Shown here: in pieces, positions 2,604 through 46,709 of the stretch
How positions within the stretch are numbered: position 1 is the first letter of the stretch
Layout: every line of letters begins with the position of its first letter
IMG/VR virus record: IMGVR_UViG_3300045988_159959
Direction: 5' to 3' (one strand)
DNA: 64,000 bases
Source: a virus
Made by a program: the position numbers and the translations under genes
Notes under the pieces: model-generated
Database searches by the model: none
Told to the model about the DNA's origin: nothing
The model's input: only the letters and a program-made list of their open reading frames with translations

Positions 2604-2640
2604 GATTTGTTATTTTTATTGTTGTTACTTGATTGTGTTG

Positions 2641-2717: not shown

Positions 2718-2818
2718 CTCTTGTTAATGGAAATAAAAACTCAAGCAATTATATATCAGTTTACAGAAATAATACAATTTAAATAGGAAATTTGGAATAT
2801 TCTATTTAAATTTGCACC

Positions 2819-4030
2819 ATGTATTTAGTAGAACAACATATTATTTCTGTAAATGATAAGAGATACAAAGATTTAGATCGAATTTGCTTCTTATCCAAAA
2901 ACTTGTATAATGCAGCTTTGTATGAGATTAAACAAGAGTTTCTTCGTACAGGTAAATGGATAAGATCAGGAGAACTTAATAAGAAAATGGTAGCAGAAAA
3001 CAATATAGATCATAGAGCTATGAGTGGATCATCCTCTCAACAAGTTCTTATGTCTTTGGATAAAAATTTAAAGTCTTATTTTTCTGCTATTAAAGCATGG
3101 AAAAGAGATAACAAGAAATTTACCGGTTGTCCTAAGTTTCCAAAATACAAACACAAGACTAAAGGTAGGAATGTGTTCTCTTACTCTTATGCACAGTTTA
3201 AACACAGAGGTAATTATATTTTCTTTCCTAAGAAAGAAGGTCTGTCGCCTTTGAAAACAAATTGTAAAGAAGGTTCTGTCAAACAAGTTCGATTTGTTCC
3301 TAAATCAGATTGTTATATCATAGAGGTTGTGTATGAATCAAAAATAAAAGAACAACTTCCTGATAATAATAGAGTTATGTCTATTGATTTGGGTGTAAAT
3401 AATCTTGCTTCTATTGTTACTAATGTAAGTAAGAAAGCTATTTTGATTGATGGAAGAAAATTAAAATCCATTAATCAGTATTACAATAAAAAGAAATCAA
3501 AAATTCAACAACAACTAAAAAAGACAAACGGAAAAGAAAATTCGAGACGATTAATTTATCTAACAAGAAAAAGAAACAATAAAGTAAAAGATTATCTTCA
3601 TAAAGCAAGCAAAGAAATTATCAATATTTGCTTGGAAGATAATATATCAACATTGATAGTAGGACATAATGATGGATGGAAGCAAAGCACCAATCTTGGT
3701 AAAAGAAACAATCAGAATTTTGTAAGCATTCCGTTTGAAACGTTTATATCAATGTTAAAGTATAAATCAGAAAGACAAGGACTAAGATTTGTTGAAGTAA
3801 ACGAATCTCATACGTCAAAATGCAGTTCTTTTGATTTAGAATCTGTGGAACACCATGATACTTACGTTGGTAAAAGAATTAAGAGAGGACTTTTCAGAAC
3901 CAAAGATGGAATCTTACTTAATGCAGATATCAACGGAAGTTATAACATCATGAGAAAAGTAAAAGGGGATGCAGTAATGCCACCCTATACAGGGTTTGGG
4001 TATAACCCAGTTAAGAAATTTATTAACTAA
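2819..4030 (+). CDS. tnpB: TnpB-like RNA-guided endonuclease; subgroup without canonical RuvC-II Glu or zinc finger
   Basis: RuvC-I is SIDLGVNNLA and RuvC-III is LNADINGSYNI. The segment LIVGHNDGWKQSTNLGKRNNQNFVSIP...VNESHTSKCSS replaces the usual xxEDL...TSQxCxxCG. Confidence 0.8.
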   Translation: MYLVEQHIISVNDKRYKDLDRICFLSKNLYNAALYEIKQEFLRTGKWIRSGELNKKMVAENNIDHRAMSGSSSQQVLMSLDKNLKSYFSAIKAWKRDNKKFTGCPKFPKYKHKTKGRNVFSYSYAQFKHRGNYIFFPKKEGLSPLKTNCKEGSVKQVRFVPKSDCYIIEVVYESKIKEQLPDNNRVMSIDLGVNNLASIVTNVSKKAILIDGRKLKSINQYYNKKKSKIQQQLKKTNGKENSRRLIYLTRKRNNKVKDYLHKASKEIINICLEDNISTLIVGHNDGWKQSTNLGKRNNQNFVSIPFETFISMLKYKSERQGLRFVEVNESHTSKCSSFDLESVEHHDTYVGKRIKRGLFRTKDGILLNADINGSYNIMRKVKGDAVMPPYTGFGYNPVKKFIN

Positions 4031-4062
4031 TGTGTATCGGTGTAAACTGACGTACAATTACC
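3900..4062 (+). ncRNA. candidate omega (right-end) RNA of TnpB copy 1
   Basis: Placed by analogy: TnpB guide RNAs overlap the 3' end of tnpB and the right end. A local hairpin GGGTT..AACCC and the conserved right-end motif are present. Boundaries are approximate. Confidence 0.35.
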
Positions 4063-4089
4063 AGAAGAACGGGAGAAAACATGAAAGAA

Positions 4090-5283
4090 TTAACTGTTTA
4101 AAGCAAGTGATTGGACTAACTTCAAGTAACATGACAAAGTTAGGAATTTGACGGGTGATTCCAACGAATTTTCGTCAAATTCATAGTCGTTCAACCATTT
4201 TTCTAACGCTTCTATGTCAATATATTGCCATTTTTCTTGTTTTAAACATTCTGCAAGTGCCGGGAAAGTGTATTCTTTATCCTTATTGAACTTTTTGCAT
4301 ACTCTTTTAAGGTAATTTTTTCTGCTGGCATACCAAACATCACCCGCAGAAGACATGCAATAATAGGAATTGTCTTTTCTTTTTACTCCAAATCGTGTTG
4401 TAATAGGATAATACACCCTATCAGCAAGGAAAATGAAAGGAATATACCAAACACTATACAAAAAGGTTGCAAATCTGTTCAATTTTGCTTCTGGAACAAA
4501 TTTTTTGAGGGTTTTTCTGAATCCATAAGCAAAATACCAGTTGTTCGCACCTCTTTTTACCTTTACAGTGTATTTTAAATGATCGTTCCTATCCTTTACT
4601 CTATCCCAGGGTTTCAATTTTTCTGTGTTCATGGACGGAAGATAAGTCCAAAAATGCTTCAATGCACTGAAATAGGGATTGTAAATGGTGTGTCCATGAT
4701 CGGAAACATAAGAAAGGATGTCATGTAGTATTTCTTTTACCAAATTTCCTATTTCCTGGTCTTTGAAAACGTCTATCAAAAGAGAAAGGGAGGGTAACAA
4801 GTTCCAAATTTGATCTTGCGATACGAAAGGAGAAAAGCAGGGGTCTTCGTTTTCAAGTTCGATCCCATTGGAATAACCACTTTCTACTTTTATAGCATCA
4901 AAAAGACCACAGGAAGCGGATGAAATATCGTCTCGAAGGAAAAACCCTTTTTCGTGTACAAAATACACTTTTGGATTTTTTGATTTTTCATCTTCATAGG
5001 CACTTACCGATAGCCTTTGAATGGATTTCAGACACCAAAGTATTTTGTCGTTACATGATTTATCTCCTAACAACGATTCTATCAAAAGGTAGTGAAGATA
5101 TTCGGCCATGTTGATAGTTCCGTCATACCAATATAGAGATTTCTTACCCAGTCTTGCGCTTTTTGTCACTTTACTGGCAGGAATATTCGTTCCTCTGCAA
5201 GTAGTTTCTTCTGTAGCGACAATAAAGTCTTTGAAGAAGATGTCTTTTAGCTTTGAGTATTTTTCTTCGATTGTCATAAGCAT
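4090..5283 (-). CDS. hypothetical protein (397 aa) sandwiched between the two TnpB elements
   Basis: Long ATG ORF on the opposite strand to both tnpB genes. No motif recognised. Confidence 0.7.
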   Translation of the reverse strand: MLMTIEEKYSKLKDIFFKDFIVATEETTCRGTNIPASKVTKSARLGKKSLYWYDGTINMAEYLHYLLIESLLGDKSCNDKILWCLKSIQRLSVSAYEDEKSKNPKVYFVHEKGFFLRDDISSASCGLFDAIKVESGYSNGIELENEDPCFSPFVSQDQIWNLLPSLSLLIDVFKDQEIGNLVKEILHDILSYVSDHGHTIYNPYFSALKHFWTYLPSMNTEKLKPWDRVKDRNDHLKYTVKVKRGANNWYFAYGFRKTLKKFVPEAKLNRFATFLYSVWYIPFIFLADRVYYPITTRFGVKRKDNSYYCMSSAGDVWYASRKNYLKRVCKKFNKDKEYTFPALAECLKQEKWQYIDIEALEKWLNDYEFDENSLESPVKFLTLSCYLKLVQSLALNS

Positions 5284-5362
5284 ATATATTAATGTATAAA
5301 ACTATGTTTTAAAGCATAAAGTAAATAGAGTCTATTTTACTTTAATTTTGTATGTTTGCACT

Positions 5363-6565
5363 ATGATTAAATCGTTCAAATATAGATTAAATCCTACCAA
5401 AAGTCAAATCGTTCAAATGGAAAAGACTTTTGGATGTTGTCGTTATATCTATAATTGGGCACTTGATAGGAAAATAAAAGCATATCAAGAAAGTAAAAAG
5501 TCTCTATCTGCTATTGACTTATGTAAAGAACTTACTTTATTAAAACAAAAAGAAGATCATCTTTGGCTTAAAGAAGTTTCAAACGAATCTTTACAGCAAT
5601 CTATAAGATGTTTAGATTCTGCTTTTACGAAATTTTTTAGAGAACATACTGGCTTTCCAAAGTTCAAATCCAAGCATCATGATAAATCAACTTTCAAAAA
5701 TATCGGTTCTGTCAAGATTGATTTTGAAAACAGTAAAATCAAAATTCCGATTTTAGGCTGGGTAAAGTTTTATAAAAACCGTTCTTTTGAAGGGAAAATA
5801 GGAACAATAACGGTTTCAAAATCTTCTACTGGTAAATATTATGTAAGTGTATTGGTAAAAGATGGAAATTCTTTACCCGAAAAGAATCCTATTACACCTT
5901 CTACTTCTGTCGGGATAGATGTTGGTTTAAAAGATTTTGCTGTTTTATCAAATGGACAAGTTTTTCAAAATCCAAAATATCTTGAAAAATTTTCTAAAAG
6001 ATTAGCTTGTTTGCAAAGAAGACTTTCAAGAAAAAAGAAGGGGAGCAATAGATACAAAAAGGCAAAATTGGCTGTTACTATCTGCCATGAAAGAATAAGA
6101 AACCGTAGACAGGATTTTCTGCATAAAGTTTCTAAAAGAATAATCAGTGAGAACCAAACTGTTATTATTGAAGATTTGAATGTAGAAGGTATGTTGAAAA
6201 ATCATTGTCTTGCAAAGGGTATTTCTTCCGTTTCTTGGAATGAATTTTTTAGAATGTTGCAATACAAAGCAGAATGGAATGGAGTAAATCTTATTAGAAT
6301 AGGAAGATTTGAGCCTTCTTCAAAGATGTGCTCTTGTGGGTATATCAATAAAGATTTAAAACTTTCAGATAGAAGGTGGATATGTCCTTGTTGTGGTTCT
6401 GAAAATGATAGAGATTTACTTGCAGCGCAAAACATTAAAAGATTTGGCTTAGAAAAACAGAATCTTTTAAGCCAAGAAAATATTTCACCGGTGGTAAACC
6501 GGGCAGAGGACGCGGAGTTGCCGACATTGGTCGGAACAGTGAAACGTCAAATTATATCGGTGTAG
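5363..6565 (+). CDS. tnpB: TnpB RNA-guided endonuclease (canonical RuvC plus zinc finger)
   Basis: N-terminus MIKSFKYRLNPTKSQ; RuvC motifs GIDVGLKDFA, VIIEDLNVEGM and DRDLLAAQNI; zinc finger CSCG...CPCCG. The track start at 5348 is a TTG; the ATG at 5363 is preferred. Confidence 0.9.
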   Translation: MIKSFKYRLNPTKSQIVQMEKTFGCCRYIYNWALDRKIKAYQESKKSLSAIDLCKELTLLKQKEDHLWLKEVSNESLQQSIRCLDSAFTKFFREHTGFPKFKSKHHDKSTFKNIGSVKIDFENSKIKIPILGWVKFYKNRSFEGKIGTITVSKSSTGKYYVSVLVKDGNSLPEKNPITPSTSVGIDVGLKDFAVLSNGQVFQNPKYLEKFSKRLACLQRRLSRKKKGSNRYKKAKLAVTICHERIRNRRQDFLHKVSKRIISENQTVIIEDLNVEGMLKNHCLAKGISSVSWNEFFRMLQYKAEWNGVNLIRIGRFEPSSKMCSCGYINKDLKLSDRRWICPCCGSENDRDLLAAQNIKRFGLEKQNLLSQENISPVVNRAEDAELPTLVGTVKRQIISV

Positions 6566-6581
6566 CTGATATATGATTACC
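6440..6581 (+). ncRNA. candidate omega RNA of TnpB copy 2
   Basis: A GC-rich segment with hairpin CCGAC-attg-GTCGG sits in the 3' end of tnpB and runs into the conserved right-end motif. Boundaries are approximate. Confidence 0.4.
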
Positions 6582-6827
6582 TCCCCAAGCAAACATACCA
6601 AGTCCGATACCAATTACCCAAGAAATGATCCGTTGAACCCATTCCGAAGGTTCCACTTTGAATAGTTTCTTGATAAACTCTGTCACGACTGCTGTAACAC
6701 CCACTACGCCTGCAAAAGTAGCGAAATTTGCAGCGTAATCTACTGTTTCTTCTGGAAGTTCCCCTTGTGCAAAAATACAGGCGACATAGGAGAACATAAA
6801 AGCCAATGTCAATAAAATTCTATTCAT
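6552..6827 (-). CDS. small secreted/membrane protein whose 3' end is supplied by the IS right end
   Basis: Signal-like N-terminus MNRILLTLAFMFSYVACIFAQ and a hydrophobic C-terminal half. The last 8 codons (NHISATPI-stop) are the reverse complement of the TnpB-2 right-end motif. Confidence 0.55.
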   Translation of the reverse strand: MNRILLTLAFMFSYVACIFAQGELPEETVDYAANFATFAGVVGVTAVVTEFIKKLFKVEPSEWVQRIISWVIGIGLGMFAWGGNHISATPI

Positions 6828-6971
6828 GATAAAATATATTTTGAGTTATATAACTGCGTCAAAGATAAAAGAAAAGAGGCACTTTCACAAGCACCCCTTT
6901 CGATCATTCTGTTTATCGCAATGAGAATAATATTAGAGAAATGTATCATCAATTGTCAATTCATTTTTCTT

Positions 6972-7211
6972 TTACACCCCAACTTTTGCTCGGTAAGCCT
7001 GACGAAGATTTTCTACTACGATTTCCAAAGCATTTACATTCATGCTTTCGACAATCCTTACACCCGGCACAACCGTTCTCCAAATAGCATTTCCGTTATC
7101 ATCAATAGTTTGTTCTATTGTTGCATCCGGATAAATCTTTTGCAGTTTTACTTTAGCTGCTTCCAGTCTTTCTTGATAAGTTGCCATAGCTATATTCTTT
7201 TTTGCTTTCAA
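6972..7211 (-). CDS. hypothetical protein (79 aa)
   Basis: ATG ORF downstream of a minus-strand -7 box at 7374-7381. Confidence 0.5.
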   Translation of the reverse strand: MKAKKNIAMATYQERLEAAKVKLQKIYPDATIEQTIDDNGNAIWRTVVPGVRIVESMNVNALEIVVENLRQAYRAKVGV

Positions 7212-23344: not shown

Positions 23345-23610
23345 TACTATTAGTTTTTAAAGACGAAAGGGCTAAGAACCGATTTTTACAGATTGTGTTC
23401 AAAGCCCTTTCTTGATTAACGTAATTAATTAACAACGAGATTGTTAATGTGCCTACTCTGTTAAGGATTTTCGGCATCCTCCTTTATTAAAAACTTTAGA
23501 TTTATATAGAGGAATATAGAATAGATTTTATTATTTCATGATCTCACCTCCTTTCTTTAATAGGGTTTGCAACTCGATTGACTATGTGAATAATTATACA
23601 GGAAAATCAG

Positions 23611-41679: not shown

Positions 41680-42210
41680 TTATTTCTCTTTTATGATTAA
41701 AAATGTGTTGATCTCACCTTCTACCAGATTGTCCAGAAATTCTTCCGGTGTCACCTTCGGAACCAACCCTGTCAATTTCTTGTCCTTTGACTGTAAAGCC
41801 CAATAGAGACTGTCTATTTCCGCCAAATGCTTTTTCTTTTTGACCAAATCCTTTTGCATGGCATGTAGTTCCGGGTTGATTGTCAAAATATCGTCCAAAG
41901 AACTTTCCGTAAGTTTCACAAGTCCTATGTCTTCTACCTTCACCTTTCCACCGTTTACAATAGATTCACGTCTTATCTGTGTGGCAAGTTGCGCTTTATA
42001 GACATTAAATTCCACTTTTGCAGATTCATATTCCGATTCTGCTTGTGACCTAAGAAGCCCTACTTTATTCAGTAAGACGGAACAAGTAGCGATTTCTCCA
42101 TATAAATTAGCGTGATCTATGGAAGTTACTGCGTCCATGTCCAATTCGTTTTTCAAATCATTGGAGAGTAAAACTATTGCTTTATCTCCTATATTTCTTA
42201 CCAATTTCAT
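41680..42210 (-). CDS. hypothetical protein (176 aa) between SSB and DnaE
   Basis: ATG ORF overlapping the dnaE stop. Helical and charged. Confidence 0.6.
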   Translation of the reverse strand: MKLVRNIGDKAIVLLSNDLKNELDMDAVTSIDHANLYGEIATCSVLLNKVGLLRSQAESEYESAKVEFNVYKAQLATQIRRESIVNGGKVKVEDIGLVKLTESSLDDILTINPELHAMQKDLVKKKKHLAEIDSLYWALQSKDKKLTGLVPKVTPEEFLDNLVEGEINTFLIIKEK

Positions 42211-45101
42211 ACCCCAAGTTTTATGAATTTACTATTACTGTTTACTTGCAATACATATTCTTCTTTGAACTTGTCAAAGTTAGCCTTTCCGCTTAATAGG
42301 AGAAGGTTTTTCTTTGTGGACTGAAAGAACTCTGCGTTTTCCTCATAATCGTCCGGGAAAATGACTACACGAAGGAACTTGTAATTGCTTTCAAGCAAAA
42401 GATTGGCAAACCGTCCTTTCTTTCCTTCTCTTTCTTCCACTTCTAAAACGTAACCGCCTACCATAACCATTTCATAGGTTGATCCGTCATAGTTCTGCAA
42501 ATCTTCCACATTGTAGAAAACCCCATTTTTGACTTTTGGTTTTAAATATTCTCTTACCAGCTCTTCATAGTCGAAGAAAGCAAATCCGGACTTGTTCTTT
42601 TGCTGCAATAGCCACCACCAATCCTTACCAATCTTTTTCTTTTCAAAGGCAAGAAAATATTCATCCTTTTCTTTATCAATTTTGATCTTATTCTTTTCTC
42701 GGCACTTTCCAAGCATGAACTCCCTTGCAGAAAAGATATTGGAAAATTCCCTTGTTTCATCCATCATATCGAACGCACCAGAATAGATAAGATTTTCAAT
42801 AACGGATTTATTCACTGCCGATCCTTTGAACGTATGACGATCAATAAATTCAGCCAAAGAAAAATACTCCCCATTTTTAGAGCGTTCTTCCATAATCTGA
42901 TTCTGTGCCTTTTCTCCTACTTGTTTTGTTGCATTGATTGCCCAATAGATACTATTATCTTTTTTGTCAGCCACAATGTTTATATCAGACTTGTTGATAT
43001 TTACAGGTTTGATTTCGATCCCTTCTGTCTGCTGCATTTCATTGACGTATTGAGGAAAGTCATCTTCACTTGCACGGGACAGAGCAACCGACCAAAATTC
43101 CAAAGGATAATGCACTTTCAGCCATAAAGAATTGTAAGCATTAATAGCGTAACTTGCTGAATGACTGTTACATGTTATAATCCCTTGATCTGTACAATAA
43201 TTATGATTCGGATCATCTATTTCCACATCGTAAACATTTTCTATTTTATCCAGTTCAATACTTACTATTTTCGATAAAGCAGATGGATATCCTTTCTCAC
43301 CTCTTTTCATCCTGCCAAATTCACGATAATGAATTTTCTTGTGACAAGAAGGACAGATAGCAATAAGATTTTCATCTTCATTATTTCTCCTGTTCCCGTC
43401 TCTATGGTGAATTTCCAATCTGCCTTCTTTCCCACAATTTTTACAAACTCCAAATCCACCATTTTTCTCTCTGAAAGATCCAAACTTAGAAGATTCTCCA
43501 TTTGTTTTTACAAAACCCATGTGTCCTTTTTTAGAGTTTAAAGATTCCGGATTGTATTTACTCCAATTTTTACCCCTCATATCGGTAAAATTGTATCGCT
43601 GACTATCCGTTTTCTCATACGGCATTTGCACATACAGATTATCTTCTCCTACTCTCAAATCTTTGCACATAACTTTACCTCTTTGAGTAGGGAATTTATG
43701 GTTGTCTGTTACAGATACAAAACGACCGTCCTCTAAAGTTATTTTATAAGTTTGCCTTACCCCAGCAAACCTAATATCTTTAATTTTTCGATCTCTTATA
43801 CGTCCATCTTCACACATAGTAAGACAAGTTCCATAGCCAACTCTCAAATATTTACTCCTAAGAGGAGTCCAATTGTTTGCTTTTGCAAATGCAAGATCGT
43901 TCTTAATCAAATACATTTCTTCGATAGTAGGTTGTCTTTTGTTTTTGGGACAAGAGTTTCTTAAAATTCTGTAACTGCCTGATATACAGCGGTTAAAAGC
44001 ATACAAACCAAATTTTTCCATCTGTTTCCAGAGTGCTTCTGCGCTTTCTTTCGTTACCCCTTTTGAAGCAAATCTCTTTACATACCCATCCACAAATTTA
44101 GGATGAATTTTCTCTACTTTGTCCTTCTTTTTTTTTGCAATTGCAGCACGAGCAACATCTGCTTCTTCTTCCGAAAAACCAGCAAGAACTTGCACCATTT
44201 TAACGATCTGTTCTTGGTATACTTGCACAGAATAAGTATTTTTCAGAATTTCTTCCGCTCCAATAGGGTATTCCGGCTCTTTTTCTCCGTTTTTCAAAGC
44301 AATGTAGTCCATGTGAAAACCATTTTCCATTGGCCCGGGACGGAACAAGGAAAGTGCTGCCACTACATCATCCATGTTTTTAGGCTTCAATTTTTGAGTA
44401 TAAGCGCACAATCCTTTTGCTGAAAACTGAAATATATCGCTAAGCCAACCGTTTGCAAAATATCTGTAAACCTCTGGATCATCATATTCTATATCAGAAT
44501 AGAGATTGATTTTCCTACCCGTATTCTTTTCAATCAGATTCAGAATATCAGTGAATTTGTCCAATTGCTCAATACCAAGAATATCTTCTTTCAAAAAACC
44601 GGCTTCGTCCATTTCTCCACCTTCCCATTCACTGACAATTAAATCGCCTGATTTTCTAACCGGACACCACTCATACATTGTCTTTTCTTTTGGAAAGATC
44701 ATCATAGCACAAGCATGAATAGAAGCTGCCTTTTGTTGTCCAAGAAGAAGAAAAACAATATTCATCATTTCTGGATATTTATTCAGAAATTGATTTACTT
44801 CTGACTTCTTGCAAGCAAGTTTCAAAAAATCTTCTTCTGTCTTTACATCTTCTATCATTTTAGTAAGCCTCCTAAGAGTAGGAATTGAGACTCCATAGAG
44901 CTTTCCTACATCGTTTATAGCCTGTTTTATCTGTAAAGTGGTATATGTACCCACAGAACAAACTTGCGAAGCTCCAAAACGATTTTCCATATATTGTTTT
45001 ACTGCCGGTCGGTATTCTCCCGGCACATCTGTATCAATGTCTAACGCTCCCCCTTGTCCGAAAACAAGGGGGAAATTGATCGGGGAGCGATCCCGGTACA
45101 A
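42207..45101 (-). CDS. dnaE: DNA polymerase III alpha (DnaE-type), C-terminal fragment (palm catalytic Asp onward), containing an intein
   Basis: GGALDIDTDVPG..R..V..Y....FG...VCSVGTYTT aligns with DnaE PDFDVDF...YG...V..I.TFGT; later FN(R)|intein|SHSASYA. The track start is a TTG; homology begins near codon 18. There is no credible independent start. Confidence 0.85.
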   Translation of the reverse strand: MYRDRSPINFPLVFGQGGALDIDTDVPGEYRPAVKQYMENRFGASQVCSVGTYTTLQIKQAINDVGKLYGVSIPTLRRLTKMIEDVKTEEDFLKLACKKSEVNQFLNKYPEMMNIVFLLLGQQKAASIHACAMMIFPKEKTMYEWCPVRKSGDLIVSEWEGGEMDEAGFLKEDILGIEQLDKFTDILNLIEKNTGRKINLYSDIEYDDPEVYRYFANGWLSDIFQFSAKGLCAYTQKLKPKNMDDVVAALSLFRPGPMENGFHMDYIALKNGEKEPEYPIGAEEILKNTYSVQVYQEQIVKMVQVLAGFSEEEADVARAAIAKKKKDKVEKIHPKFVDGYVKRFASKGVTKESAEALWKQMEKFGLYAFNRCISGSYRILRNSCPKNKRQPTIEEMYLIKNDLAFAKANNWTPLRSKYLRVGYGTCLTMCEDGRIRDRKIKDIRFAGVRQTYKITLEDGRFVSVTDNHKFPTQRGKVMCKDLRVGEDNLYVQMPYEKTDSQRYNFTDMRGKNWSKYNPESLNSKKGHMGFVKTNGESSKFGSFREKNGGFGVCKNCGKEGRLEIHHRDGNRRNNEDENLIAICPSCHKKIHYREFGRMKRGEKGYPSALSKIVSIELDKIENVYDVEIDDPNHNYCTDQGIITCNSHSASYAINAYNSLWLKVHYPLEFWSVALSRASEDDFPQYVNEMQQTEGIEIKPVNINKSDINIVADKKDNSIYWAINATKQVGEKAQNQIMEERSKNGEYFSLAEFIDRHTFKGSAVNKSVIENLIYSGAFDMMDETREFSNIFSAREFMLGKCREKNKIKIDKEKDEYFLAFEKKKIGKDWWWLLQQKNKSGFAFFDYEELVREYLKPKVKNGVFYNVEDLQNYDGSTYEMVMVGGYVLEVEEREGKKGRFANLLLESNYKFLRVVIFPDDYEENAEFFQSTKKNLLLLSGKANFDKFKEEYVLQVNSNSKFIKLGV
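43167..43988 (-). mobile_element. 274-aa intein with an HNH endonuclease domain in DnaE
   Basis: Inserted between YAFNR and SHSASYA. Starts CISGSY. Block B is SVTDNHKF. HNH domain CKNCGKEGRLEIHHRDGNRRNN..NLIAICPSCHKKIH. Ends VYDVEIDD..GIITCN|S. Confidence 0.8.
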
Positions 45102-45170: not shown

Positions 45171-46400
45171 CTATTCATTTTCTTTAATACACATAGGATG
45201 TCTCTTCCCTCTGCATAATTTGATTTTCCTATACGAAGCATCTTTTGGATTATTCCCTTCGATATCCCGGATATTGAAACTACCTGTTTTTCTTCTACCA
45301 TATATAAACATTATTTTATTGTTATATAATACTTTATCAAATAAACGAAATCCAAAAACCTCAAATGGAGATTGATTCATACGTTTCAATCCTCCCTTCT
45401 GAATCTTTATTTTATGAATCTGGCGATTATGTCTTCTAATCAATTTTATCCTATAAAGGCAATTAATTCTATCAGCTTCGAAGTTCTTGGATATAATAAA
45501 AGCATCAGATGCATGAGATTTCTTTATGTTATGAATTATACGGTTGTGTTTCGTTACATAACCGTATGTCATGAATACGTTTGGATACAAACCTTTTAAA
45601 CAATCACACAACCTCCATCTCATTATCCCCATTACGGCAGCGTCGCGAAGCGACTTGCCTCTCCGTATCTTCAAGTCTATCTTACCTTTATGATAATCAT
45701 CATGACATGTCTCACATAAGGTTATTAAATTGGATGGAGAATCACCACCGGTTTTCCTTGATTCAATATGATGAACGTTAAGGACCTTGTTTTTTGACTT
45801 ACCCTTGCAATGACAGCATTTGTGACCATCACGGTATAAGACATATTCCCTTACGTTCCAAAAACCAAGTTGTTCTCCTTCTTGATATAATTTACCCTCT
45901 ATGTCAGGATTCTTGATCTTTTGTGTATCAAATTGAGCTACTTCAATAACGAGGCGAGTAATTGGCAAAATAGAATACACATTTTGAATAACGCGAATAT
46001 GAGCGTCTATCTTGTTCTGCACCGAAGGTGCTAACCATCCTTCACGTTTTGATTTTATCCTATTATCAAAACGAGGTTTTCTATACCTCAATCTTGACCG
46101 CCTTGTCCGTCTTAGCTCTCTCCTTGTAGACAAAAGATCTACCATATCACTTCTCAGAGTCACTTCACTCGCATAAAGCTCTTTGCTTTTCGTCGTTGCT
46201 GACAAACCAACATGTTTGGTTCCGGCATCAACGCCTAACGTAATTTCTTGTTTGTAACTATCGGATATGTACGTCAATCGGATGGTAAACGGACATAGGT
46301 TTACAACGACCGCCTGTTTTGTTTTAAGCAGTCTCCTAACCTTTCCATGCCTTGTTGTTGGCATAAGCGGTTTACCTTCTATGTTCTGTACATACACCAT
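45171..46400 (-). CDS. iscB: IscB RNA-guided nuclease (PLMP, split RuvC, bridge helix, HNH)
   Basis: EGKPLMPTTRHGKVRRLL (PLMP domain); LGVDAGTKHVG (RuvC-I); RRELRRTRRSRLRYRKPRFDNR (Arg-rich bridge helix); LVIEVAQFD (RuvC-II); CCHCKG..NVHHI..NLITLCETCHDDYH (HNH); SHASDAFII (RuvC-III); C-terminal FRLFDKV..GRRKTGSF. Confidence 0.9.
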   Translation of the reverse strand: MVYVQNIEGKPLMPTTRHGKVRRLLKTKQAVVVNLCPFTIRLTYISDSYKQEITLGVDAGTKHVGLSATTKSKELYASEVTLRSDMVDLLSTRRELRRTRRSRLRYRKPRFDNRIKSKREGWLAPSVQNKIDAHIRVIQNVYSILPITRLVIEVAQFDTQKIKNPDIEGKLYQEGEQLGFWNVREYVLYRDGHKCCHCKGKSKNKVLNVHHIESRKTGGDSPSNLITLCETCHDDYHKGKIDLKIRRGKSLRDAAVMGIMRWRLCDCLKGLYPNVFMTYGYVTKHNRIIHNIKKSHASDAFIISKNFEADRINCLYRIKLIRRHNRQIHKIKIQKGGLKRMNQSPFEVFGFRLFDKVLYNNKIMFIYGRRKTGSFNIRDIEGNNPKDASYRKIKLCRGKRHPMCIKENE

Positions 46401-46709
46401 TATTCACAAACAACATAATGTTTATTCAACATAAGTCAGGATAAAAATCCTGTTAGTACCCATCGCCAATGTTATCAAAGGTTTGTTGTAAGCAACACTG
46501 TTTCCCAAATACAAAAACTGTTTAATCACTTACCTTAGAACTACAGACTTGGGCAAATATCCGTAGGTAACTATCTATTCTTTAATAACGTAGTTCTTGT
46601 TTCAGAACTTAGGCTAATAACCAGATCCGATTTTACGGATGTATTAAAATGGGATAATGATTTTATCTGATTTTAATACTATTTGCGGTTATATTCTTGT
46701 TACTTGATA
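46401..46709 (-). ncRNA. candidate IscB omega RNA (HEARO-type) or other structured RNA upstream of iscB
   Basis: 309 nt without an ORF, directly 5' of iscB, where IscB guide RNAs are encoded. Minus-strand hairpins: ATCCG-taaaat-CGGAT, GTTCT-gaaaca-AGAAC, CAGGAT-tttt-ATCCTG. It may extend 5' to about 46829. Confidence 0.5.

Follow-up and report, generated by a model that had tools for sequence, protein, structure and literature searches.

Two tnpB genes of a gut phage probably reside in nonautonomous IS1595-type cassettes with shared ends

The virus record IMGVR_UViG_3300045988_159959 of IMG/VR includes a 64,000-nucleotide stretch of DNA (hereafter the window) whose region 2744-6581 holds three genes: two tnpB genes, tnpB-1 and tnpB-2, and between them an open reading frame (ORF) for a 397-amino-acid (aa) protein. 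Our comparison of this region with related phage and prokaryotic loci indicates that both tnpB genes very likely belong to nonautonomous cassettes of the IS1595 type, in which the transposase gene has been replaced by tnpB and a putative omega-RNA module. The identification as IS1595-type cassettes is well supported by the ends of their relatives, terminal inverted repeats (TIRs) flanked by 8-bp target site duplications (TSDs), and by the transposase found between identical ends elsewhere. The window itself is AT-rich phage DNA, carrying a DNA polymerase gene, a large terminase gene and Bacteroidota-type TAnnTTTG boxes. The three genes and the two elements are:

2744-4062, plus strand: element 1, 1319 bp, putative nonautonomous IS1595-type TIR cassette with tnpB-1 and predicted omega-RNA.
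2819-4030, plus strand: tnpB-1, 403 aa; Pfam matches OrfB_IS605 (3e-24) and TNB (9e-12).
4090-5283, minus strand: ORF of the 397-aa protein, a resident phage gene.
5302-6581, plus strand: element 2, putative left-truncated IS1595-type cassette with tnpB-2.
5363-6565, plus strand: tnpB-2, 400 aa from ATG 5363 as the real start; Pfam matches HTH_OrfB, OrfB_IS605 and TNB.

A preliminary description, drawn from the letters of the window alone, had reported two tnpB genes in one orientation 1.3 kb apart, one canonical with a zinc finger and the other of a different type, and an opposite-strand ORF between them. These observations are borne out. Both genes are intact and lie on the plus strand with a spacing of 1.33 kb, and the ORF on the minus strand is present between them. 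The C4 zinc finger (CxxC..CxxC) belongs to tnpB-2, together with the RuvC residues D186, E270 and DRD 349-351 (motif positions); tnpB-1 lacks the CxxC zinc finger, and its RuvC residues D190, E329 and D370 are present as judged by motif inspection only. The two proteins are 22% identical over 324 aa.

The same description noticed that both genes are followed by a common motif of about 28 nt. The motif is found at 4035-4062 (TATCGGTGTAAACTGACGTACAATTACC) and 6555-6581 (TATCGGTGTAGCTGATATATGATTACC), and its two copies agree at 22 of 28 aligned positions. Its consensus pattern has no other match in the 64 kb, even when three mismatches are allowed, nor any in 100 shuffled versions. Both copies stop exactly at the junction with phage DNA, as set by element-free relatives. 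That description overlooked an inverted copy of this motif, which makes up the left end of element 1 (2744-2765).

Loci retrieved from viral contigs or genomes are designated by L-numbers (L001, L400 etc.); family 1 comprises elements of the tnpB-1 type and family 2 those of the tnpB-2 type. Retrieval was seeded by the TnpB proteins, and the family-1 set consists of the best 80 of 290 viral-contig matches, the family-2 set of 50 loci. TIRs of 22-24 bp, initiated by GG and with the consensus GGTAAYTATATACMAGTTTACA, are present at both ends of most of these relatives (~130 copies examined). Right ends of family 1 read ..TAA-ATACAAG-TGTAAA-CTTGTAT-ATAATTACC and are followed by varied flanks, those of family 2 read ..GTGAARCGTCAAAWTGTACTGGTGTAAACTGGTATATAATCACC, and left ends of both families start with the consensus, which is the reverse complement of the right terminus. 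By comparison with these copies, the motif noticed earlier is the right TIR plus the inner arm of a hairpin. Perfect 8-bp TSDs surround 15 of the 36 distinct flank pairs of family 1, and five further pairs match at seven of eight positions; family 2 yielded two perfect 8-bp TSDs and one with seven of eight. Related family-1 copies having both TIRs and 8-bp TSDs measure 1317-1328 bp. One insertion can be followed directly from its empty to its occupied state: TGTTATTT is single in the window (2608-2615) and in L403, and stands on both sides of a reverse-oriented family-1 element in L416.

2608-2618, minus strand: empty target for another family-1 insertion, TAA then AAATAACA; occupied in L416/L126, with TGTTATTT duplicated.

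The motif holds a hairpin and sits at gene ends, and could on these grounds be taken for ordinary phage intergenic sequence, as the preliminary description had itself envisaged, for example a terminator with no role in mobility. We give this reading practically no credence. The motif is missing at the same intergenic sites of element-free relatives, occurs in the window only at tnpB ends, and accompanies the elements into dozens of unrelated flanking contexts; its absence from empty sites rules the intergenic explanation out.

The transposase that matches these ends was sought by scanning the TIR pattern in one genome per prokaryotic species, which gave at least 120 loci. Among the matches listed, inverted TIR pairs with perfect 8-bp TSDs enclose elements of 130-230 bp, that is, miniature inverted repeat transposable elements (MITEs), of 2.0-2.3 kb and of up to 4.8 kb, and 25 TIR pairs have TSDs matching at 7 or more of 8 positions. 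The larger elements encode a protein of ~305 aa that corresponds to PF12762 DDE_Tnp_IS1595 (E = 1e-44; L236, L267), usually along with a KilA-N or RhuM passenger gene. This transposase is present in 27 of the 120 genome loci listed, some of them in metagenome-assembled genomes of Bacteroidaceae, Prevotella and Alloprevotella. When viral contigs were searched with a profile built from such transposases, 539 relatives came to light; phage-borne IS1595 copies are bounded by TIRs (for instance GGTAATTATATACCAGTTTACA) and by 8-bp TSDs, and one contig, 3300045988_059086, carries a transposase (L370) and tnpB cassettes (L118) together. Members of the IS1595 family generate 8-bp TSDs and contain Zn_Tnp_IS1595 and DDE_Tnp_IS1595 domains, and the TIRs of the related eukaryotic Merlin elements have GG termini (PMC8101967). 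As the cassettes lack a transposase and share their TIRs with transposase-bearing elements of Bacteroidota genomes and gut phages, they would be moved in trans; and as two TnpB clades have the same ends, a single transposase family would serve both.

The preliminary description had likewise concluded from the shared ends that one TnpA acts in trans. Real transposon ends, common to two TnpB clades, and one transposase family remain of that proposal, but the transposase is not of the Y1 (HUH) type. A Y1 TnpA with the same ends was sought and none was found: every transposase found inside these TIRs is DDE_Tnp_IS1595. In tblastn searches of the window, for which the absence of TnpA had been noted before, and of 3.35 Mb of retrieved loci, those of the ~130 cassette copies among them, no Y1 TnpA was detected, which is a weak negative; the probe did detect a Y1 fragment beside a TIR-less outgroup of family 2 (L116), which served as positive control. 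These results bear on the possibility that we are dealing with ordinary IS200/IS605 elements of the tnpB-only kind (IS1341-type), mobilised by a Y1 HUH TnpA in trans that recognises the motif as its right-end hairpin. The closeness of TnpB-2 to ISDra2 TnpB, a right-end hairpin that is followed by a linker of 8-9 nt and is superficially like the right end of IS608, and a conserved motif 5' of the insertion point all speak for it. Elements of IS200/IS605 and IS607, however, have neither TIRs nor TSDs, and those of IS200/IS605 insert 3' of a fixed tetra- or pentanucleotide (PMC13565253); here both TIRs and TSDs are seen directly. Moreover, similar subterminal hairpins at both ends were not found: a stable covarying hairpin exists at the right end only, whereas folding energies for the 45-nt left ends are 0 to -7 kcal/mol and a matching arm is lacking. 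Together with the exclusive presence of DDE_Tnp_IS1595 and the lack of Y1 TnpA in the regions searched, this makes an IS200/IS605 origin of the ends very improbable.

The nucleases themselves do point to such sources. TnpB-2 matches the ISDra2 TnpB entries 8exa and 8h1j of the PDB (E = 9e-80) with catalytic motifs aligned. TnpB-1 is 40-46% identical to TnpBs of other phages and ~42% identical to TnpBs of Helicobacter phages that lie beside a serine resolvase, the IS607 arrangement. Family 2 is accordingly ISDra2-like and of IS605 background, and family 1, without zinc finger, of IS607 background. Two TnpB lineages from different transposon backgrounds have therefore come to reside in one DDE chassis.

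Some points weigh against the assignment to IS1595. No IS1595 transposase is encoded in the window, and only one phage contig has been seen with both transposase and cassettes, which leaves the actual helper less certain. Neither copy in the window has both TIRs or a TSD, so their class rests on relatives and on right junctions.

Among the 80 best phage loci, no IS1595 element combines transposase and tnpB. Homologues of tnpB-1 or tnpB-2 were not present in the 120 genome loci listed for the TIR pattern, which says little. On contig 3300045988_162789 (L133, 6674-7057) a phage protein of 127 aa corresponds to the N-terminal zinc-ribbon/DNA-binding part of IS1595 transposase (41% identity over 122 aa), has no DDE domain and is followed by a passenger-like ORF; such a protein might act as a regulator by binding TIRs, or might inhibit transposition.

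Both window copies are damaged at their left ends.

2744-2765, plus strand: left TIR of element 1, degenerate, AGCAATTATATATCAGTTTACA against the family consensus GGTAAYTATATACMAGTTTACA.
4041-4062, minus strand: right TIR of element 1, reading GGTAATTGTACGTCAGTTTACA; bulk of the 28-nt motif.
6560-6581, minus strand: right TIR of element 2, reading GGTAATCATATATCAGCTACA; one nucleotide of the consensus is deleted.
6552-6827, minus strand: small membrane-protein gene cut by element 2, 91 aa here and ~140 aa in relatives; weak Colicin_V match.

The left TIR of element 1 shares 17 of its 22 positions with 4041-4062 in reverse complement, its terminus reads AGCAAT instead of GGTAAT, and the left TSD is gone along with ~14 nt of a phage terminator loop. 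A one-step deletion does not fit this junction, for which at least two small events are needed. The same odd junction, CTCAAGCAATTATATATCAGTTT, leads into a family-1 interior in the window and into a family-2 interior in L108, which is 99% identical to tnpB-2 there and whose right junction lies 48 nt further on. Identical left junctions with different interiors indicate, therefore, that the interior was swapped by recombination within shared ends. An exchange of ends, offered in the preliminary description as the alternative to a common TnpA, is in this respect partly vindicated. Element 2 has lost ~24 nt of left TIR (full-length family-2 relatives start with GGTAACTATATACCAGTTTTCGTAATTATG..) and with it ~217 bp of adjacent phage DNA (196-217 bp across relatives), comprising a terminator and the last ~50 codons of the small membrane-protein gene; the last codons and the stop of this gene now fall within the right end of element 2. 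Left TIRs were lost at different junctions also in other family-2 copies (L073-75) and in a large family-1 group (L163-186), and right ends are almost always retained across copies. Having lost a functional left end, both window copies are probably no longer moved by transposase; homing or nuclease activity could persist in them, as genes and right ends are intact.

Various other arrangements of the cassettes were encountered. About a dozen copies of the L163-L186 group (family 1, on phage contigs of ~150 kb) have a common left flank and no left TIR, and at least six unrelated right flanks follow directly after their intact right TIR, a pattern that looks like a recombination boundary or like one-ended events at the omega-RNA end. 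Family-2 loci L070, L071, L072 and L107 have a common left flank and four different right flanks, with two right ends in tandem in L072 (..ATCACC-TTATATCGGTGTAAACTGGTATATAGTTACC). A family-1 cassette is nested within a family-2 tnpB in L118 (2911-4651), and L180 contains a MITE-like TIR pair of 331 bp (650-980). In L184/L188, an element of ~1.35 kb, the size of family 2 (1150-2496), and a family-1 cassette (2924-4243) are separated by ~430 bp, and both have perfect TSDs of their own. A scan of viral contigs for the right-end motif (TATCGGTGTA N10-13 ATTACC) was of little use: 67 of its 68 matches were due to chance (unrelated middles, no tnpB), and the sole real match was L069, on the same contig as L108.

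The 397-aa protein has no Pfam or PHROG match. Used as a query on viral contigs, it retrieved 62 loci of a gut-phage lineage, on contigs of mostly 55-108 kb. The gene occupies the same locus in these 62 related phage loci, and in about 45 of 60 loci bearing it no tnpB lies within 3.5 kb. Empty sites lacking copy 1 and copy 2, which the preliminary description had suggested looking for in related phages, were found: the sites of element 1 (site A) and element 2 (site B) are both empty in L400, L001 and L403. Element 1 is absent from L001, L400, L401 and L403, with alignments that stop at 2742 and restart at 4063. At element 2, the alignment of L400, the locus closest to the window in the 397-aa gene (98.7% aa identity), stops at 5301 and restarts at 6582. 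L001 (MT835500.1), ~90% identical, aligns up to 2742, over 4063-5296 including the 397-aa gene, and again from 6583; it has 14 nt in place of element 1 and 211 nt in place of element 2. Judged by these relatives, the 397-aa gene is ordinary resident phage DNA and not cargo, and the two tnpB cassettes are independent insertions and not a composite.

A composite unit, in which the two outer ends, on the left of element 1 and on the right of element 2, would together mobilise the 397-aa gene, had been the central suggestion of the preliminary description. The two elements do share orientation and type of ends, DDE transposases can in principle use any inverted pair of ends, and family-1 and family-2 elements in one orientation, 3.6 kb apart, were found in two other contigs (L073/L130, L074/L131). 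In L130, however, a perfect TSD of its own, AAACAGTT, flanks the family-1 element, and the intervening DNA is unrelated to that of the window. The comparison of genomes, to which the preliminary description had itself referred the question, decides against the composite: the gene is fixed at its locus in 62 relatives, mostly with no adjacent tnpB and in several with both sites empty; the three-gene block was seen at no other position among the 62 loci; and the junctions at the two sites are independent of each other. The outer ends that such a unit needs are damaged as well, the left terminus of element 1 being AGC instead of GGT with no TSD, and element 2 having no left TIR. We consider a composite scarcely credible. 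In L402 (contig 3300045988_166299, reverse-complemented to the orientation of the window), the closest relative with tnpB-2 at site A, an extra TnpB, 43% identical to TnpB-2, is encoded at 5928-6998, right of an empty site B.

Each cassette family has, in addition, a covarying RNA structure at its right end, formed by the last ~200 nt of family-1 and ~140 nt of family-2 elements.

3854-4062, plus strand: predicted omega-RNA-1 scaffold; overlaps the 3' end of tnpB-1 and stops at the element boundary; terminal hairpin 4034-4053.
4063-4082, plus strand: predicted guide flank of omega-RNA-1, AGAAGAACGGGAGAAAACAT; ATAA precedes the same sequence in empty relatives.
6444-6581, plus strand: predicted omega-RNA-2 scaffold; stems 6444-6475, 6488-6502 and 6509-6548; terminal hairpin 6553-6573; stops at the boundary.
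6582-6601, plus strand: predicted guide flank of omega-RNA-2, TCCCCAAGCAAACATACCAA; the empty site of L400 has it unchanged, after ..AAATGGAA.

The structure of family 1 (17 sequences) contains 50 pairs, with 98.6% of cells paired and 7 compensatory pairs; its covariation is 0.206 against 0.139 in shuffled alignments, none of 500 of which reach it, and sliding of the partners lowers it to 0.03-0.08. The last 260 nt of family 2 (22 sequences) form 5 helices over ~140 nt with 38 pairs, 98.2% paired and 5 compensatory (covariation 0.244 vs 0.187 shuffled, 0/500; 0.03-0.06 when slid). The final hairpin incorporates the inner part of the right TIR and is followed by 8-9 nt of TIR and then by the flank. 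It contains many G-U pairs and therefore fits an RNA on the tnpB (plus) strand, not a DNA hairpin or a transcript of the opposite strand. We infer that the RNA is an omega-RNA scaffold whose guide would be the TSD with the downstream DNA.

There are reservations to this interpretation. Rfam yielded no omega-RNA family for the region, whether gathering thresholds or a cutoff of E <= 10 was applied, and the overlap of the predicted structure with coding sequence inflates its conservation; omega-RNA, target-adjacent motif (TAM) and cleavage are all deduced from comparison of sequences. In addition, the right-end hairpin of family-1 cassettes recurs (GTACCAGTGCAAACTGGTAT, ~-22 kcal/mol) in L329 (contig 3300045988_157488, 2878-5948), an autonomous IS1595 element with transposase, unrelated passenger ORFs and no tnpB. 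The hairpin was consequently rejected as a feature exclusive to tnpB; in L329 it may predate the capture of tnpB or may have arrived by recombination.

The sequence preceding the insertions is likewise conserved. Directly 5' of the TSD, nTAA is present in every family-1 insertion with a TSD. TAA accompanies 15 of 15 family-1 insertions compared with 8 of 49 IS1595 elements without tnpB (Fisher p = 3e-9), the latter consisting of 3/25 in genomes and 5/24 in phages. The empty site A of L001, L403 and L416 reads ..CTCAATAA|AGAAGAACGGGAGAAAACATG, the bar marking the insertion point, and the right flank of element 1 in the window, AGAAGAAC.., follows ATAA in these three loci. In family 2 an A at position -1 and a T as first duplicated base recur. 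TAA looks like the TAM of family 1; for family 2 a TAM of A then T can be tentatively proposed, compatible with an ISDra2-like TAM ending in AT. The order of TAA, TSD and flank in the empty site is what a TnpB with a guide reading TSD and flank would need, and in the occupied site the same target follows ..TTACC. The reading of omega-RNA and TAM is in this way supported by comparative evidence, and TAA beside the TSD suggests RNA-guided homing into empty sites. Against it can be held that not every one of the 15 TAA cases is independent (L127 and L137 may go back to a single ancestral site), that IS1595 elements already prefer AT-rich targets, with TAA in 16% of controls, and that the family-2 pattern was seen in 7 junctions only. 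At the empty site A of L400 and L401, TGA replaces TAA before the target of element 1 (CAATGAAGAAGA vs CAATAAAGAAGA in L001, L403 and L416), which could be neutral variation or escape by loss of the TAM.

Taken together, the cassettes might spread in two ways. IS1595 transposase supplied in trans would move a cassette to a new site and create an 8-bp TSD, and the guide of its omega-RNA would from then on consist of the flanking TSD and downstream DNA. In an unoccupied genome the sequence matching the guide would sit after a TAM (TAA in family 1), so that TnpB would cut empty sites of co-infecting relatives, and recombination repair would copy the cassette into the cut site, a process that amounts to RNA-guided homing. 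The occupied site would be protected, its target standing after ..TTACC. One difficulty is that the footprint of cut-and-paste transposition, with two copies of the TSD, would not restore the arrangement of TAM and target; the benefit would have to come from homing into naive sites. The full proposal is that homing has become uncoupled from scarless HUH or serine transposition. IS605-like and IS607-like modules would have been caught independently by an IS1595 DDE chassis of phages of human-gut Bacteroidota, and the right TIR would have come to serve as 3' end of the guide scaffold. Homing would then drive only post-TAM insertions through phage populations, and copies that later lose the left TIR, both window copies among them, would persist as pure homing elements. 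We offer it tentatively and rate it just short of probable.

Within the same architecture, tnpB and omega-RNA could instead have been kept by selection for attacking co-infecting relatives or for driving recombination, copies without left ends being domesticated. Intact tnpB genes and right ends do outlast independent losses of the left TIR (window, L073-75, L163-186), guides match the empty sites of close relatives exactly, and many copies have one common and one differing flank, as at recombination boundaries; nuclease genes are known to mark boundaries of exchange in phages (PMC10055350). On the other hand, cutting of an empty site and its repair from an occupied genome is homing regardless, so that the two explanations overlap, and element 2 cuts short a phage gene, which looks selfish rather than beneficial. 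A selected role of this kind appears unlikely, though not to the degree of the composite or of the IS200/IS605 origin discussed above.

As IS1595-type cassettes, the elements combine traits of several known systems. With the IS1595 family they share GG-initiated TIRs of ~22-24 bp, AT-rich 8-bp TSDs and a TIR sequence that also bounds transposase-encoding elements, and KilA-N/RhuM passengers and MITEs of 130-230 bp belong to the same TIR family. They differ in the absence of an internal transposase, the sole cargo being a putative RNA-guided nuclease and its guide RNA, in a right TIR that would double as the RNA 3' end, and, for family 1, in adjoining TAA, which other IS1595 elements do not require. 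With IS200/IS605 elements (ISDra2, IS608 and the tnpB-only IS1341) they share the TnpB nuclease, that of family 2 being a close homologue of ISDra2 TnpB, a predicted omega-RNA that runs from inside the 3' end of tnpB to the right boundary, with the flank as guide, and a conserved motif 5' of the target. The cassettes, in contrast, have no Y1 TnpA and possess TIRs and 8-bp TSDs instead of asymmetric hairpin ends and scarless insertion, and the TSD separates the putative TAM from the left end. The likeness to IS607 lies in the ~42% identity of TnpB-1 to Helicobacter phage TnpBs beside a resolvase-type gene; the cassettes have no serine recombinase, and IS607 has no TIRs or TSDs. Finally, they resemble homing endonuclease genes of phages (T4 seg and mob, intron-encoded ones) in their presence or absence at fixed sites among close phages, in a nuclease predicted to cut the empty allele and in flanks shuffled around the insertions. 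The target of a cassette, however, would be specified by RNA and reset at each transposition, and its first spread would depend on a DDE transposase.

TnpB is usually accounted for by a partnership with scarless transposases, those of IS605 and IS607. Its association with DDE transposases has been argued to be rare in prokaryotes, and transposition that forms TSDs and leaves breaks to fit it poorly (PMC13565253). The main text of Altae-Tran et al. 2023 describes six DDE-associated TnpB branches with inverted terminal repeats, in which the ends of solo tnpB copies match those of transposase-bearing elements, and names IS630 (PMC10691335); a 2026 review added ISL2 and IS1031 (PMC13565253). IS1595 is unmentioned in the main texts of both articles, though one of the DDE branches of the former may be IS1595. 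Our literature search for a mechanistic link between IS1595 and TnpB found none among the papers covered. In epsilon crAss-like phages, two TnpBs 18% identical were treated as transposases (PMC11054128). To the DDE-associated branches, and to eukaryotic Fanzor1 in TIR transposons, the present cassettes are similar in having TnpB within symmetrical DDE transposon ends, a tnpB 3' end within 250 bp of the transposon end, and solo copies with ends matching transposase-bearing elements. They differ in the IS1595 chassis, in two distant TnpB clades on it, in their occurrence in gut phages and in a visible rule of TAM plus TSD. As DDE-associated TnpB is already known, the variant here is IS1595 as the chassis of two unrelated TnpBs.

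If the assignment holds, it provides an abundant natural case of DDE-TnpB association, with hundreds of copies in gut phages and two unrelated TnpBs per one chassis, in which the TAM can be read directly from TSD-flanked insertions. It would allow the adaptation of guide and TAM logic to TSDs, and a homing drive by TnpB during co-infection of phages, to be tested, and it supplies two compact nucleases with predicted guides and AT-rich TAMs. Annotation is affected as well: the genes would be filed as IS200/IS605 transposases, and the elements are probably IS1595 derivatives.

The preliminary description also proposed a hairpin common to the left ends of both genes. Inverted repeats with the letters AAATAG..CTATTT do lie 5' of both tnpB genes (2781-2807 and 5324-5338), closely followed by TAnnTTTG boxes (2807-2814 and 5351-5358), but they are not a demonstrated shared structure. 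In family 2 the CTATTT arm is specific to the window copy; relatives have CCATTTT or TATATTAC instead, and it is the arms AAAGTAAA/TTTACTTT that are conserved. Neither family shows covariation in support of the left-end hairpin, and RNAalifold gave a palindrome without sequence variation for family 1 but no consensus hairpin for family 2, so the hairpin was dropped as a common structural signal. In family 1, the sequence of the palindrome is invariant across 11 copies and nothing therefore favours a folded structure; it is probably a promoter or operator.

2776-2814, plus strand: conserved palindrome TAAATAGGA..TTCTATTTA; overlaps the TAnnTTTG box 2807-2814, 4 nt before the ATG.

Elsewhere in the window, a third OMEGA-type element is located between the DNA polymerase gene and the next ORF (45171-46661, minus strand). 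It consists of a 409-aa HNH/IscB-like ORF (PHROG 119, E = 1e-64) directly 3' of a full-length HEARO RNA (Rfam RF02033, 97.9 bits, 46452-46661). A DUF805b RNA motif (RF02914, 53.6 bits vs a gathering score of 35.6) occurs in this phage genome at 23450-23484 on the minus strand. The DNA polymerase ORF itself (42207-45101, minus strand, 964 aa) has HNH-endonuclease matches only at residues ~535-614, in the middle of the protein, and this segment may be an inserted HNH or intein-like module.

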